From Crocinitomicaceae bacterium (GTDB lineage: Bacteria; Bacteroidota; Bacteroidia; Flavobacteriales_D; Crocinitomicaceae), in assembly GCA_029251865.1 (NCBI GenBank), contig JAQXCN010000030.1, positions 6,141-70,140 on the forward strand: a stretch of 64,000 bases of DNA. Direction: 5' to 3'. The notes under the pieces were generated by a model. The model searched no databases, was not told where the DNA came from, and was given only the letters and a program-made list of their open reading frames with translations. The position numbers and the translations under genes were made by a program. Below, piece by piece: positions 10,662-16,914 of the stretch (positions are counted from its first letter, which is position 1; each line of letters starts with the position of its first letter).

Positions 10662-11324
10662 ATGAAAAAAATATTTTTATCTCTTGCAGTCGTGGGTATA
10701 GTGATGAGCTCATGTACAGATAATGGAAGAAAAGTTGAAGCAAATGAAGCCCAAGCTATCGAAGTTGTAAAATCAGAAGCAACAATTGAGCTTACCTCTG
10801 TAGGTAACGGAAGCCATGTTGACTGGAGAGCATCTCACCTCGGGGGCGCGGCGCCAAGATTTGGAAAAATCAGCCTAAAAAGCGCCACTGTTTTAGTAAA
10901 CGATGGTGAAATGACAAATGCAACATTTGTAATGGACATGGCTGCATTTACGGTAGATAATTTTGGTGATGATAAAAAGTCTCAAGCCGAATTAACAGGA
11001 CATTTACAAAGTCAAGACTTCTTTGAAATTGAAAAATTTCCGACAACAACCTTTGACTTAGCACGTATAAACCCAACGAAAACGGATGGGTTTAATTCAG
11101 AAATTACAGGAAACTTGACAATAAAAGGCGTGACCAAAAGCATTACGTTTAAGGCTAATGTATCTGTGACGGCCGATAAGGTTTCTATTGTATCAGAAGA
11201 TTTTGCTGTTGACAGAACAGACTGGGGTTTATTGTATAACGTAGAAGGGACTGAAGGTGTCCCAGCTGACTACTTAATTGCGAATGATATCGGTTTTACA
11301 ATTGACGTAAATGTTTCTAAATAA
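10662..11324 (+). CDS. YceI family lipoprotein
   Basis: Lipobox (VMSSC) and YceI pattern: VDWRASHLGG...GKISL, GHLQSQDFFEIEKFPTTTF, GNLTIKGVTKSITF. Confidence 0.85.
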   Translation: MKKIFLSLAVVGIVMSSCTDNGRKVEANEAQAIEVVKSEATIELTSVGNGSHVDWRASHLGGAAPRFGKISLKSATVLVNDGEMTNATFVMDMAAFTVDNFGDDKKSQAELTGHLQSQDFFEIEKFPTTTFDLARINPTKTDGFNSEITGNLTIKGVTKSITFKANVSVTADKVSIVSEDFAVDRTDWGLLYNVEGTEGVPADYLIANDIGFTIDVNVSK

Positions 11325-13185: not shown

Positions 13186-13339
13186 GTTTGTTAACGTTTA
13201 GGGTAATTGTCTGAAGCTTTTAGACATGTGACGCGCAGCGGAACTTTTCTGTAGCGTAGGACAATGGCAAGTTAGCACAGCGATTTGTTATTTGCAAGGA
13301 AGTCCAAAAAGCTTTTGCAATTACCCCTGTGTTGTAAAC
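13186..13339 (-). repeat. attC-like long imperfect palindrome (element A)
   Basis: On the minus strand: GTTTACAACacaGGGGTAATTG...CAATTACCCtaaACGTTAACAAAC. It has AAC/GTT boxes and a 9-bp inner stem with one unpaired G, and pairing continues into AAGCTTTT/AAAAGCTT. It begins 5 nt after the stop codon at 13345-13347. Confidence 0.45.
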
Positions 13340-13344
13340 TGTTT

Positions 13345-13890
13345 TTAAAAAGCAAATACGATTACCAAAATAATTAGTAGAATAGGAGCAAGTAGTACAA
13401 TTTGGCTAATTATTGTCCAAACGATAAACATCAAATTTTGTAAAAAACTAGAACTATTTGATTTGTCTTTTTTAGTTAGTGAGACAAGTTCATCAAATTC
13501 CATTTCTAGGAATTGGTTCTTAGGTATTTTGAGGTCAATAATTCCTTTGTCTGACAGACCTTTTTTATAACCAAGATAAATGTCTTTTGGATATAGCCAA
13601 ATTCCATACCCCATAGCCCAAAGACTTAATAATCCTAATGGGAAATATTTCCACATTCCTGTTGAAATTTCCCAACCTGAAATAAAGCTTTCCCCTTTCC
13701 ATGATGTGTCACAATTATTTAAAACGTGCTGAAGATCATGTATATGGATAGCATCTCGTCTAAATTTTGGATTTGGCAATTTTAGATTTATTCCAAACAC
13801 TTTGAAATTAAAGGATGTGTCATTAACTCCACCGTCGATTGGTATGTTATTTTCTTTATAAAACTTCTCTAAGTGTTTAGCTAAAGTCAT
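13345..13890 (-). CDS. Coq4-like HDxxH-x11-E motif protein with C-terminal TM anchor
   Basis: HIHDLQHVLNNCDTSWKGE fits the Coq4 zinc-ligand pattern HDxxH-x11-E. There is a C-terminal hydrophobic helix (IISQIVLLAPILLIILVIVFAF). The family call is tentative. Confidence 0.4.
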   Translation of the reverse strand: MTLAKHLEKFYKENNIPIDGGVNDTSFNFKVFGINLKLPNPKFRRDAIHIHDLQHVLNNCDTSWKGESFISGWEISTGMWKYFPLGLLSLWAMGYGIWLYPKDIYLGYKKGLSDKGIIDLKIPKNQFLEMEFDELVSLTKKDKSNSSSFLQNLMFIVWTIISQIVLLAPILLIILVIVFAF

Positions 13891-13900
13891 AAGGTTAATA

Positions 13901-13924
13901 GTTTACAACGTTTGGGCTAACTGC
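13901..13924 (-). repeat. solo half-copy of the palindrome-arm motif (element B)
   Basis: + strand GTTTACAACGTTTGGGCTAACTGC closely resembles the arm of element A, GTTTGTTAACGTTTAGGGTAATTG. I found no partner arm. Confidence 0.4.
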
Positions 13925-13937
13925 GTTTTAATGCAGT

Positions 13938-14825
13938 TTAGGTTTTGTTGGCTGTAGTTTTCTTTTCTTTTTTTTCCCATTGCCAATAAAAGAATGGGAA
14001 TACTGGTATAGGAAATGATTGTTTGGCATCTATATCTGAAAAATATCCATTTATTGCAACAAGCTCAATTCTCAAACTTCTTAAAAAACCAAATCGGTTC
14101 TTGTAAAATGGGGCTATTCTAAATCCATAGTTAAATTGCCTTTTTCTTGGGACATTTTCAAGATAAGTGAAAGTTGAGCCATAAGTATAACCTATATGAT
14201 AGCTAATCCAATTTGATGGCCTGTAGTCTATTCCAATAGAAAAGTTGGGATTCCAGCTGTTCGTAAATGTTTTAGTTTGAAAGTTCAAGGAATCATTTTT
14301 TTGCATAATTAACTCCCCGATGTAATCAACTCCCGCAGACAAGTTAATGTCCAATTTATCTTTTATTCGATAACCAATACTTGGTTTGAAATGAAAATAT
14401 GATCCATTTTCCCACATAGTCAGGGACGGGGTTTCAAACCGTTGAAGAGTATCCCAAAAGTGAACAAACATGGCTTCAATTCCTATAGTGGGCACTAATC
14501 CATTTTGTGTATTAAATCGATACCTAAAATTAATACTTGGAATCGGTTTTTTTAGTTCAGTAAACGCCCCAAAGATCCAGGGTAATAAGTCAATTTGTGC
14601 TGTAAGTTTATCGGTAATCCCTACAAATGCCCAACTTGGAAATGGTAAAGTTTGTATTGATTGAGCATATATCCATTCCCCTTTTTTAAGAGTATATGGC
14701 GTTATACAATCAATAGGATGAAGGTAAGCATCATCTTTTAACGAATTTTTTTTCTGAATTGTATCCGTTTGCCCAATTAAAAATAATGGGAATAAAATTG
14801 ATATTAAAAGTGTTCTTTTATTCAT
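13938..14825 (-). CDS. hypothetical secreted protein, outer-membrane beta-barrel-like
   Basis: Signal peptide (LLISILFPLFLIGQ) and alternating aromatic/hydrophobic strands (FSIGIDYRPSNWISYHIGYTYG). No family was recognised. Confidence 0.45.
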   Translation of the reverse strand: MNKRTLLISILFPLFLIGQTDTIQKKNSLKDDAYLHPIDCITPYTLKKGEWIYAQSIQTLPFPSWAFVGITDKLTAQIDLLPWIFGAFTELKKPIPSINFRYRFNTQNGLVPTIGIEAMFVHFWDTLQRFETPSLTMWENGSYFHFKPSIGYRIKDKLDINLSAGVDYIGELIMQKNDSLNFQTKTFTNSWNPNFSIGIDYRPSNWISYHIGYTYGSTFTYLENVPRKRQFNYGFRIAPFYKNRFGFLRSLRIELVAINGYFSDIDAKQSFPIPVFPFFYWQWEKKEKKTTANKT

Positions 14826-14834
14826 TCTTAATTA

Positions 14835-14967
14835 CCGCTAACGTTAAGTATATGGGCAGTAGCGGATTAACTGCTACTCATTTTTTGAAAGCAAGATACT
14901 TATTAAATACAAAAAGCGGATCAAGTTTGCACCTAAACCGCTATTGCTTATATACCTTGTTAGCCAC
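14835..14967 (-). repeat. attC-like imperfect palindrome (element C)
   Basis: On the minus strand: GTGGCTAACaaggTATATaagcaATAGCGG...CCGCTActgcccATATActtaacGTTAGCGG. It has a 6-bp GCTAAC/GTTAGC outer box and bulged inner stems. It starts 2 nt after the SDR stop codon, and its GTT lies 14 nt before the next ATG. Confidence 0.45.
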
Positions 14968-14969
14968 TT

Positions 14970-15749
14970 TTATTTTTCTTCTTGCATTTTTCTAGTTGTC
15001 TTTAAAATCATTTTCTTAGGGAAGAATGAAACTAGAGACAACTGCATCTTTTGTGATCTTGATGAGACTGAGATTACATCTAGTTTTCCTTGAATCATCG
15101 CATTATATCCATCTTCTGCAACACTTCTAGCTGAAGCTGGGTTACTATAAATTGCTGTCTTATCCACACCTGATGTTTTCGCAAAGCTTGTTTCAGTAGC
15201 GCCTGGCAACAATGCCGTGACTGTGATATCTTTGTCATACAATTCCTCTGCTATTGCATTACTAAAAGATGAAACATACGCCTTTGAAGCAAAATATACG
15301 GCTTGTAATGGGCCTGGTATCAAAGCAGCAGTCGAAGAGGTGTTTAGTATTTTTCCATTATTTCGAGCCACCATGCTTGGTAACAAAAGATAGGTCAACT
15401 CTGTGAGTGCAACCATGTTGAGATTAATCATTTGCATTTGCCGTTCCCATGGAAGTTCATGAAACTTTCCTACCAATCCAAAACCTGCATTATTCATTAA
15501 ATAGTCTACTTGAATACCCAGGGACTCTATATCATTAAATAATTCTTTAGCGGCTCCAGTTTCGCTTAAATCTTTCGCGATTGTGTTGACTTGAATTCCA
15601 TACTTTTTCTCTAACTCGGCTTTCAAATCATTTAGTTTGTCCTGTCCTCTTGCTACTAGAATTAAATTACCCCCTTTTTCTGCGTGAATAGTTGCTAGTT
15701 CTTTTCCTATACCACTGCTTGCTCCTGTTATTAATGCTGTATTTTTCAT
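14970..15749 (-). CDS. SDR family oxidoreductase
   Basis: TGASSGIG cofactor motif and YxxxK (YFASKAY). I prefer the start at the ATG at 15749 (MKNTALITGASSGIG) over the track start at 15830. Confidence 0.9.
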   Translation of the reverse strand: MKNTALITGASSGIGKELATIHAEKGGNLILVARGQDKLNDLKAELEKKYGIQVNTIAKDLSETGAAKELFNDIESLGIQVDYLMNNAGFGLVGKFHELPWERQMQMINLNMVALTELTYLLLPSMVARNNGKILNTSSTAALIPGPLQAVYFASKAYVSSFSNAIAEELYDKDITVTALLPGATETSFAKTSGVDKTAIYSNPASARSVAEDGYNAMIQGKLDVISVSSRSQKMQLSLVSFFPKKMILKTTRKMQEEK

Positions 15750-15844
15750 CGATTCATATTTATTAGATTCAAGACAAATTTCGGTGCTTTTTTGAAGTGT
15801 GAATAGCACTAATAATGGAAGATGTAACACAAATAACAGAAAAT

Positions 15845-15867
15845 GAAAAAAGAAGCTTATAGCTTCC
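15845..15867 (-). terminator. weak Rho-independent terminator after the AraC-family gene
   Basis: On the minus strand, a GAAGCT-ATA-AGCTTC hairpin is followed by TTTTTT. Confidence 0.4.
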
Positions 15868-15873
15868 TTTACA

Positions 15874-16782
15874 TTAATTCATCTGACGATATTCTTGAGG
15901 TGTTTTGCCAGTTTTCTTTTTGAAGATTCGTCCAAAATAATGAGGGTAATTGAATCCCAAAGAATAGGCAATACCACTTATAGAATCTGTTGAACTTACA
16001 AGAAAATTTTTAGCTTTTTCGATTAAAAAATCATTGATGTGTTCTTTCGCTGATCGACCTGTTTCTTTACTTAATAAATCACTAAGATAATTGGATGATA
16101 AGTGGCATCCATTGGCTAAATATTCAATAGTGGGTTGCCCTGATAAAATCAATTCATTCGTTTGATAATAGCTTTTAAGAAGGCATTCAACCTTCGATAC
16201 AATATCTGTGTTTTGAGCAGAACGTGTGTTAAACTGGCGTTCGTAAAACCGGAAGGAGTAACTTAAAATGAGTTCAATGTTTGACACCAATACTTGTTGA
16301 CTGTGACTGTCTATACGCTCTTGAATTTCGTCCTCAATTAAGTTTACAAGATTGTTCAATAAAGATTGTTCTTTCTCTGATAAATGAAGAGCCTCATTTA
16401 CTTCATAATTAAAGAATGTGTAACCGTCAATTTTAGAAGCTAATTTGGTGTTTCTTATCAAGTCAGGATGAAAGTAGATCATCCAACCTTTTATCTCATT
16501 TAACTTTTGGACTTTTGTGACCGTGAATACTTGTTTGGGCGCAGAGAAAAAAAGCACACCTTCGTTAAAGTCATAAGGTTTTCTGCCATAGTCAAGGCCA
16601 CAACTAGCGTCTTTCAAGGCGATACTATATAAGTCTGATGTGATTTTCAGTCCTTGCATTTCTTTTCCAAAAACAATGTCGGCAGTATCGATAACAGCTA
16701 TCAAAGGATGTGTTGGTTTTCCTAAACCTGAGCCTTCAATTAATTGGTTTATAGATTTTATATGTATGATATTCTTATCCAT
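15874..16782 (-). CDS. AraC family transcriptional regulator
   Basis: C-terminal double HTH (IEYLANGCHLSSNYLSDLLSKETG...ISGIAYSLGFNYPHYFGRIFKKKTGKTPQEYR). Confidence 0.9.
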   Translation of the reverse strand: MDKNIIHIKSINQLIEGSGLGKPTHPLIAVIDTADIVFGKEMQGLKITSDLYSIALKDASCGLDYGRKPYDFNEGVLFFSAPKQVFTVTKVQKLNEIKGWMIYFHPDLIRNTKLASKIDGYTFFNYEVNEALHLSEKEQSLLNNLVNLIEDEIQERIDSHSQQVLVSNIELILSYSFRFYERQFNTRSAQNTDIVSKVECLLKSYYQTNELILSGQPTIEYLANGCHLSSNYLSDLLSKETGRSAKEHINDFLIEKAKNFLVSSTDSISGIAYSLGFNYPHYFGRIFKKKTGKTPQEYRQMN

Positions 16783-16860
16783 TATTTATACAAACCTATT
16801 ACTTAGACCCTGGACACATTAACACTAATTCCGGTAAAATTAACACGTATTGCTTCAATT

Positions 16861-16914
16861 GTGGCTAACGTAGGGCTAAAGATACATCTTTATTTTTCCA
16901 TTGTGAAGCCCGTT
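16861..16914 (-). repeat. short attC-like hairpin (element D)
   Basis: On the minus strand: AACGGGCT-(29 nt, including the AAAGAT-GT-ATCTTT hairpin)-AGCCCtaCGTTAGCCAC. The stem has a 2-nt bulge. It shares ACGTTAGC with element C and lies 12 nt after the stop codon at 16927-16929. Confidence 0.3.

Follow-up and report, generated by a model that had tools for sequence, protein, structure and literature searches.

An integron-like gene cassette array with attC-like sites of variant geometry in marine Crocinitomicaceae

Four gene cassettes between two core genes

The 4.8 kb between the core genes DUF2461 and DoxX of a Crocinitomicaceae genome (contig JAQXCN010000030.1 of assembly GCA_029251865.1), studied here within a 64-kb stretch of DNA referred to below as the window, is a hypervariable array of four minus-strand gene cassettes, three of which end in an imperfect palindrome resembling the attC recombination sites of integrons. 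The host is a marine member of the Flavobacteriales, and the array occupies a fixed chromosomal position between the two genes; the nearest public relatives of the DUF2461 gene come from metagenome-assembled genomes (MAGs) labelled Crocinitomicaceae or uncultured Flavobacteriales. An earlier note, made from the letters of the window, had proposed an integron-like cassette array without a nearby integrase, and both the comparison of strains and the site family described below support that proposal; the palindromes and the four GTT ends that it listed lie where it placed them. The array is modular, its junctions are exact, and its sites are structurally conserved and co-oriented, and we regard the segment 16868-12128 as probably an integron-type gene cassette array, similar to a CALIN (cluster of attC sites lacking an integron integrase), with a variant class of attC. 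Its features are given here in the order in which the minus strand is read; bit scores are those of R2, a covariance model introduced below, and arrows (G↓TT) mark the point of exchange.

18416-17631, minus: proC, upstream neighbour of DUF2461
17592-16927, minus: DUF2461 gene (Pfam PF09365, E=6.7e-61), fixed upstream boundary of the array
16914-16861, minus: site0, the array entry junction, with GTT at 16869-16867 and G↓TT between 16869 and 16868
16868-14842, minus: cassette 1, 2027 bp, AraC regulator and short-chain dehydrogenase/reductase (SDR) genes, both with Pfam matches, and their own site
16782-15874, minus: AraC-family regulator gene, in cassette 1
15830 or 15749 (start) to 14970, minus: SDR gene, in cassette 1
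14965-14836, minus: cassette 1 attC-like site, 130 nt, GTT at 14842-14840, 40.5 bits
14841-13909, minus: cassette 2, 933 bp, outer-membrane (OM)-barrel-like gene with a 16-nt leader and its own site
14825-13938, minus: OM-barrel-like gene, weak OMP_b-brl and DUF2490 Pfam matches
13953-13903, minus: cassette 2 attC-like site, 51 nt, GTT at 13909-13907, 45.1 bits
13908-13195, minus: cassette 3, 714 bp, unk181 gene with an 18-nt leader and its own site
13890-13345, minus: unk181, gene for a 181-aa hypothetical protein, in cassette 3
13337-13189, minus: cassette 3 attC-like site, 149 nt, GTT at 13195-13193, 31.5 bits
13194-12128, minus: cassette 4, LamG gene at 13096-12128 for a type IX secretion system (T9SS) cargo protein, with Laminin_G_3 and Por_Secre_tail Pfam matches and a 98-nt leader
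12074-11736, minus: DoxX-like gene, first of two, conserved core and downstream boundary of the array

The core status of DUF2461 shows in its synteny with proC, kept in relatives down to ~62% amino-acid identity, and DoxX adjoins DUF2461 after only 440-1800 nt in L003, L004, and L005 (homologous loci and contigs from public collections carry L numbers). The DoxX-like pair, counted among the accessory genes in the earlier note, is thus conserved core in relatives. Within the array, AraC and SDR form one two-gene cassette. As had been read from the letters, the leaders of the OM-barrel-like, unk181 (there called Coq4-like), and LamG genes, of 16, 18, and 98 nt, hold no TAnnTTTG promoter box; the leader of cassette 1, upstream of AraC, carries its own such box (TAGGTTTG at 16798-16791). 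Directly after the AraC stop codon, a perfect hairpin, GGAAGCTATAAGCTTCC, is followed by TTTTTT (15840-15873, minus) and looks like an intrinsic terminator between AraC and SDR, so that the SDR gene probably has its own promoter. Cassette 4 follows a different site in each of the window, L014, and L019, has no R2-detected site downstream, and always has DoxX as its neighbour; it looks like a fixed terminal cassette.

Cassette turnover between strains

Relatives whose DUF2461 is 87-100% identical have DUF2461 and DoxX 440 nt to 4.85 kb apart, with intervening genes that show no relationship from one strain to another; flanking genes of 91-100% identity accompany different cassettes. For example, L013, with flanking DNA 98.7% identical to that of the window, holds none of the window's five array genes, L014 (97.5% identical DNA) holds one HxlR gene and then LamG, and L019 holds two other genes and then LamG. 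Cassette 1 is absent from L013, L014, L016, L019, and others, and L060 has the 3' part of the AraC gene, SDR, and the site of cassette 1. Single cassettes also recur in other company: public collections contain the exact unk181 protein in 61 blocks, next to many different neighbours, the exact OM-barrel-like protein follows an esterase-like cassette in L061 and a different gene in L062, and one cassette start (TTGGCGGTAATTACATT...) stands behind the first site (site0) in L021 and behind the third site in L020. Near-identical bodies of the cassette 2 site are found at other cassette junctions in L019, L020, and L050.

The borders of these replacements fall on the GTT triplets. By blastn, homology on the DUF2461 side ends at 16857-16873 in more than 20 loci, with a mode at 16867, the last T of GTT 16869-16867, and homology of the LamG block restarts at 13196 (L014) or 13206 (L019), at GTT 13195-13193. 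The comparative check proposed in the earlier note, i.e., blocks present or absent among relatives with breakpoints at GTT triplets, was therefore positive, and at a finer resolution than expected. Contig alignments of unk181 narrow the junction further: five unrelated site bodies are seen in front of the cassette start TTGTAAACTATTAAC (their ends being ...GTTAGCCCAAACG, ...GTTTATTCAAAACG, ...CTTATACTAGACCG, ...AATTACCCTAAACG, and ...AATTACCTTAAACG), and the 149-nt site of unk181 continues into four different cassettes (TTAACAAACC..., TTATAACCAAC..., TTATAGTTAAT..., and TTATGGGGAAT...). CGTT is the sole sequence common to these junctions, so the crossover lies within C-G-T-T, and homologous recombination is excluded because unrelated site bodies are joined with nothing but CGTT in common, which a site-specific cut can achieve. 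The crossover is thereby resolved in natural recombinants to C-G-T-T and not to a single phosphodiester bond, in agreement with the G↓TT exchange of integrons.

Cargo across strains includes T9SS-sorted surface or secreted proteins (LamG, FG-GAP, BNR, and Lcl_C-like), OM-barrel-like proteins, regulators of the HxlR and AraC types, SDR and epimerase enzymes, an alpha/beta hydrolase, a PEMT/ICMT-like methyltransferase, DUF1801, and many hypothetical lipoprotein-like proteins. The unk181 family is widespread among Flavobacteriia genomes. In L064 (9960-10720), which belongs to another lineage, a 78%-identical unk181 homologue stands alone between secDF and hflX, retains the cassette start GTTGTAAACAATTAAC, and has decayed site remnants on both sides; to judge by these remnants, it resembles the fossil of a single cassette at a secondary site in the genome, akin to a SALIN (single attC site lacking an integron integrase). 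In L065 (1-10722), a 65%-identical homologue lies at the end of 10 kb of small genes, mostly co-oriented and accessory in appearance, including those for an OM barrel, NYN, YARHG, T9SS, and cyclic nucleotide (cNMP)-binding proteins and a methyltransferase, with no R2-type sites. No integrase was found in the contexts of the unk181 homologues (L064-L067), which held one more site and a decayed single cassette. Several metagenomic or MAG contigs (L001, L021, L039, L069, and L070) end at most ~100 nt from site0 or at the DoxX end of the array.

Two further differences between strains were seen outside the array. The window, L014, L019, and L051 have a YceI-family gene (10662-11324 of the window, plus strand) between the DoxX-like gene DoxXa and the conserved gene after it, and L003, L004, and L005 lack it; this gene has no R2-type site and is a second, independent presence/absence polymorphism. 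In L014 (9490-10000), a 98%-identical strain, the region upstream of DUF2461 lacks the greater part of proC and of a 210-aa gene, leaving 513 nt between the porin gene and DUF2461 versus ~1.9 kb in the window, and proC would there be a pseudogene or deleted. The rest of the window encodes housekeeping functions (fumarase, isocitrate dehydrogenase, 1-deoxy-D-xylulose-5-phosphate (DXP) synthase, cytochrome oxidase assembly, and T9SS PorZ), and GC skew over the 64 kb was uninformative on the orientation of the array relative to replication.

Anatomy of the attC-like sites

In an alignment of eleven hand-curated sites, AACA and CGTT are invariant and the arms are gap-free, with the geometry AAC-N3-stem...stem-N5-GTT, i.e., a stem that starts 3 nt after AAC and stops 5 nt before GTT. 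This AACA...CGTT pattern with its 3/5-nt spacers describes the ends better than the consensus CCC-N(1-8)-ACGTTr offered earlier. The cassette 1 site reads GGCTAAC-AAG-GTATATAAGC...GCCCATATAC-TTAAC-GTTAGCG, and that of cassette 3 reads TTACAAC-ACA-GGGGTAATTG...CAATTACCC-TAAAC-GTTAACA. For cassette 2, the earlier note had listed a fourth GTT end on its own; the end is real and belongs to a full site of 51 nt, in which the R'' arm, AGCCAAC, falls within the 3'-terminal part of the OM-barrel-like gene and the stem, CTAAACTGC/GCAG-TTAG, has one bulged A.

Sites are 51-195 nt long in total, with loop regions of 7-146 nt, and fall into families of about 51-53, 67-69, 130-133, 148, and 190-195 nt. The R box pairs over 4-6 bp (YAAC with GTTR): AAC and GTT pair in all 31-34 scorable distinct sites, with one site reading ATT for GTT, the fourth R-box pair is kept in 20 of 31, and the outer three positions pair only about half the time. 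That one site (L050, 7763-7815; 40.5 bits) is otherwise typical, with ATT at the recombination triplet (…ACCGAACATTATCA), and may, by its letters, be inactivated or a tolerated GWT-like variant. In the L stem, eight of ten pairs covary with double-sided changes, and 78% of cells are paired across 35 distinct sites; cells with double changes number 113 versus 49 ± 6 in shuffles, a value reached by none of 500 shuffles, and the covariation score is 0.37 versus at most 0.14 for controls with a slid register. In nearly all sites the spacer between R'' and L'' keeps to 3 nt and that between L' and R' to 5 nt, lengths that become effectively 5/7 in sites with the first two L pairs open, and a single extra base occurs in only ~4 of ~20 site families, always on the 5', top-strand arm. 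Of 31 sites, 29 have the stabler fold on the bottom strand, with a mean difference of 1.44 kcal/mol, though many of the sites are related and so not independent. Single-strand DNA folds of the window's palindromes are only moderately better than shuffles, with z from -1.4 to -2.7 (cassette 1 site, -18.3 kcal/mol, z=-2.4); given such modest scores, folding alone is unconvincing and the weight rests on the comparative evidence. Of the single-strand picture suggested earlier, the R and L boxes were seen and the extrahelical bases were mostly absent.

R2 was built from the curated sites with loops N-masked, since a full-length MAFFT alignment misaligned the left arms; an earlier model, R1, made without loop inserts, was blind to sites longer than ~75 nt. 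Run without filters, R2 places three sites and no others in the interval 11.3-17.7 kb, all on the minus strand. In 510 kb (the window plus 40 homologous loci, both strands, or ~64 kb of any one genome), it recovers every curated site and nothing else below E=0.8. Because the three sites of the window were in the training set, and E-values are rough, independent support comes from the junction analysis and from ~20 untrained sites that R2 finds at E of ~1e-4 to 1e-10 in newly fetched array contigs. In these contigs, the array strand holds 39 of the 40 R2 matches with E<1, the exception being a 14-bit match at E=0.8, and every match with E<0.05. Within 10.8 kb, L050 carries seven sites; in two of the cassettes there, the genes lie on the opposite strand and the sites still follow the array orientation. 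Rfam at gathering thresholds gave no matches in the window, and two exact site cores were absent from the viral contigs searched. Simple scans for AAC...GTT with a stem count were abandoned, as they returned 56 matches versus 30-55 in shuffles; a stricter AACA/CGTT version returned 17-32.

For comparison with canonical attCs, we harvested twelve class-1 sites (e.g., aadA1, aacA4, and cmlA1) from plasmid integrons; as the tblastn search of plasmids with IntI1 gave class 1 integrons only, the set is class-1 only. The twelve are GC-rich and share one layout, R''7 - 5 nt - L''8 (fourth base bulged) - loop - L'7 - 5 or 6 nt - R'7, whereas the Crocinitomicaceae sites follow a 7-3-10...10-5-7 plan and are AT-rich and mostly bulge-free. 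The two kinds share R'' ...YAAC(A), R' (C)GTTR..., the L''/L' stem, the variable loop, and the R-spacer-L-loop plan as a whole, with spacers asymmetric in the same direction, the occasional bulge on the same arm, similar R boxes (e.g., GGCTAAC...GTTAGCG here versus GTACAAC...GTTAGCG of estX), and overlapping lengths (57-141 nt in class 1). Both have the stabler bottom strand, a bias reported as 2.12 kcal/mol for class-1 attCs (PMC5027507) and measured as 2.7 kcal/mol for eight that we folded. Hence, pairing AAC/GTT core sites, a structurally conserved L stem, variable loop and length, a crossover within CGTT, and bottom-strand bias are attC traits found here, while unpaired spacers of 5-6 nt and the L'' extrahelical bases (G16, T23/24) are attC traits that nearly all or most of these sites lack.

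Entry junction, recombinase, and rival explanations

New cassettes would enter at the conserved site0 just after DUF2461, where at least ten different sequences follow the GTT in different strains. The earlier note counted 16914-16861 among the palindromes; site0 does hold a weak hairpin (GGGCT/AGCCC), but it stands outside the family, with no R2 match and no AAC arm in relatives, and is instead a conserved junction at whose GTT the homology with every relative ends. Its right half, TTTAGCC-CTAC-GTT, is like the L'-spacer-R' half of one local site family. At 16884-16877, 8 nt upstream of the GTT, lies a promoter-like box, TATCTTTA, which in more distant relatives without arrays is an exact Bacteroidetes -7 box TAnnTTTG (TATCTTTG). 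Having a GTT half only and no foldable two-armed structure, being found with new cassettes, and having a box upstream as attI has its cassette promoter (Pc), site0 resembles attI or attG and may act as a double-stranded partner site of that kind; it differs from them in having no adjacent intI and in the likeness of its right half (TTTAGCC-N4-GTT) to a local attC family. The box, of the form TAnnTTT(G/A), would be a promoter reading into the first cassettes and could transcribe those that are promoterless. CALINs and insertion at attG are established (PMC4889954, 10.1101/2022.09.11.507474), and experiments have shown that cassettes can also insert at GWT sites in the genome that are not att sites and so give rise to integrase-less cassettes (10.1101/2022.09.11.507474).

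Some strains carry altered forms of site0. L004 has two copies (720-785 and 1530-1610). The second follows the first inserted gene and takes in the final ~12 nt of the DUF2461 reading frame; the other copy is a hybrid, with the left half of site0 and a right half (CTACGCATAGCCAAAACGTT) like another site family. This double and hybrid site0 is not explained by simple G↓TT exchange. In L003 (10700-10725) and L022, compared with L005 (10700-10740), the site0 GTT was lost by a ~12-14-nt deletion between two CTAC repeats (cctac, then gttttcaaactac, then atcat), and cassettes are nearly lacking in these strains, a pattern suggestive of an inactivated entry site.

In the model that we propose, a mobile unit starts at the TT of a GTT triplet, takes in one or two genes, and ends with the G of the site at its 3' end; that site is an imperfect palindrome, foldable as a single strand, with an R box, an asymmetric 3/5-nt spacer, a covarying L stem, and a variable loop. 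Excision and insertion of cassettes, by cutting within CG↓TT and probably on the folded bottom strand, would be the work of a tyrosine recombinase of the integron integrase type whose gene lies elsewhere in the genome or which is supplied in trans; a circular unk181 cassette would then be expected to show the junction ...CAATTACCCTAAACG joined to TTGTAAACTATTAAC. As read from this footprint, an IntI-type enzyme acting in trans is the likely recombinase, since a conserved AAC/GTT, a CG↓TT crossover, a folded two-box site, and bottom-strand bias are the signature of integron integrases. The array as a whole also resembles known integron cassette arrays in its co-oriented and mutually similar sites, one or two genes per unit, short promoterless leaders, occasional cassette-borne promoters, fast strain-level turnover, G↓TT exchange, and lack of an integrase within 4 kb; it differs in the 3/5-nt spacers, the usual absence of extrahelical bases, its anchoring at a half-site after a housekeeping-type gene (DUF2461), and a Flavobacteriales host, a group in which integrons are barely documented. 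The coexisting site families recall the mutually similar attCs of sedentary chromosomal integrons, which also have cassette-borne promoters (PMC8618304). IntegronFinder calls a CALIN where at least two attCs lie <4 kb apart with no intI within 4 kb; the three window sites, as candidate attCs, are 0.7-1.0 kb apart, with no integrase found in the 64 kb.

Several results weigh against an integron-type reading. First, tblastn with IntI1 found no intI or other tyrosine recombinase in the 64-kb window (as the earlier note had observed there), the 40 homologous loci, or 14 array contigs; further, Pfam scans of 50 window ORFs (open reading frames) found no Phage_integrase domain, and extension past one window end gave 9 kb of ordinary genes with no integrase, the protein at the other end having no match on record. 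A complete integron has intI with adjacent attI and Pc, and here a promoter-like box and a half-site follow DUF2461 instead. Second, the canonical and lineage models do not cross-detect at default sensitivity: R3, a small, class-1-biased surrogate that stands in for IntegronFinder's attC model and recovers all class-1 attCs, including three outside its training, finds no Crocinitomicaceae site with default filters, and R2 finds no class-1 attC. With filters off, the best R3 match in the window is weak (9.1 bits, E=0.44) and covers the R box only. Third, the 3/5-nt spacers depart from canonical attCs, whose central spacers are "usually five to six" nt per arm (PMC5027507), and most sites are without the L'' extrahelical base present in 12 of 12 class-1 attCs examined; extrahelical bases are dispensable for some attCs (PMC5027507). 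Finally, complete integrons are almost absent from complete genomes of Bacteroidetes, for which IntegronFinder 2 found in RefSeq only In0 and one Salinibacter integron (PMC9024848); integrons have been reported in the phylum Bacteroidota (PMC8618304, PMC9668308), and the literature that we searched, itself incomplete, held no description of cassette arrays in Flavobacteriales or Crocinitomicaceae, or of attCs with such geometry.

All four lines would suit an integron-like cassette system run by a different recombinase, Xer-like or a lineage-specific tyrosine or serine enzyme, with a convergent resemblance to attC, as would the anchoring of the array at the end of a chromosomal gene and not beside an integrase. 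We nevertheless hold this unlikely, though a serious alternative, as the features from which an IntI-type enzyme is read, together with R boxes near RYYYAAC/GTTRRRY, the R-spacer-L-loop layout, and co-orientation, are those of an IntI substrate, and two related sites of L050 do align full-length, if marginally, to R3 with filters off (17.2 and 13.7 bits). Xer-dependent pdif modules, as on Acinetobacter plasmids, have 28-bp XerC/XerD cores in alternating orientation around the modules. They resemble the present array in being small gene modules with short recombinase sites, exchanged between replicons without a dedicated adjacent recombinase gene; the sites here are instead 51-195-nt hairpins, all co-oriented, with AAC/GTT triplets, a distinction in site layout.

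A more conventional explanation, that the palindromes are REP-like (repetitive extragenic palindrome) or MITE-like (miniature inverted-repeat transposable element) repeats or terminator hairpins and that genes turn over by homologous recombination on conserved flanks, as in a flexible genomic island, is very improbable and largely refuted. Hairpins directly after stop codons, a locus between conserved core genes, modest single-sequence folding scores, and several near-identical repeated site bodies would all suit it, and imperfect intergenic palindromes in repeated families are what REP elements, bacterial interspersed mosaic elements (BIMEs), and MITEs have in common with the sites. But unrelated site families are joined to the same cassette sharing only CGTT, cassettes move singly and change order, the hairpins are without a T-run, and their stems covary while AACA and CGTT stay invariant at a fixed distance. 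Further, the sites are confined to the array and co-oriented, absent from the other ~500 kb examined (none below E=0.8 outside arrays and none below E=0.05 on the opposite strand), without target-site duplications, and mark exact module boundaries, unlike dispersed repeats lying in both orientations; the REP/MITE alternative that the earlier note had kept is thus not supported in the ~64 kb covered of any one genome. Chimeric joins of co-occurring strains at a repeat, as an assembly or binning artefact, are barely credible: many metagenomic contigs do break at or near the array, but such breaks are the expected outcome of real population heterogeneity, L004, L014, and L019 span DUF2461 to DoxX, and independent assemblies (JGI, ENA, Tara, NCBI MAGs, and Logan) have the same junction architecture and consistent cassette boundaries.

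To our knowledge, what is known of integrons, textbook engines of rapid gene gain, comes almost entirely from Proteobacteria. This locus shows cassette exchange at work in an abundant marine Flavobacteriales population, with cassette content differing completely between strains whose flanking DNA is 97-99% identical. The cargo is dominated by cell-surface and secreted proteins, small regulators (AraC and HxlR), and enzymes, which links cassette turnover to surface and niche variation. Given the variant geometry, either integron integrases accept a wider range of sites than is known or another enzyme is at work, and such arrays may be undercounted in metagenomes by attC models whose training set is clinical; contig and MAG breaks at the locus also mean that cassette content is systematically lost from MAG-based surveys. 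More tentatively, and with considerable doubt, marine Flavobacteriales might have their own class of cassette platform, with attC-like sites of distinct geometry (3/5-nt spacers and no extrahelical bases), arrays growing from a fixed promoter and half-site where a housekeeping-type gene ends and not from an intI-attI module, and a recombinase that is remote or non-integron. If so, standard integron finders would miss these arrays, and their contribution to strain-level diversity among abundant ocean bacteria would have gone unnoticed.

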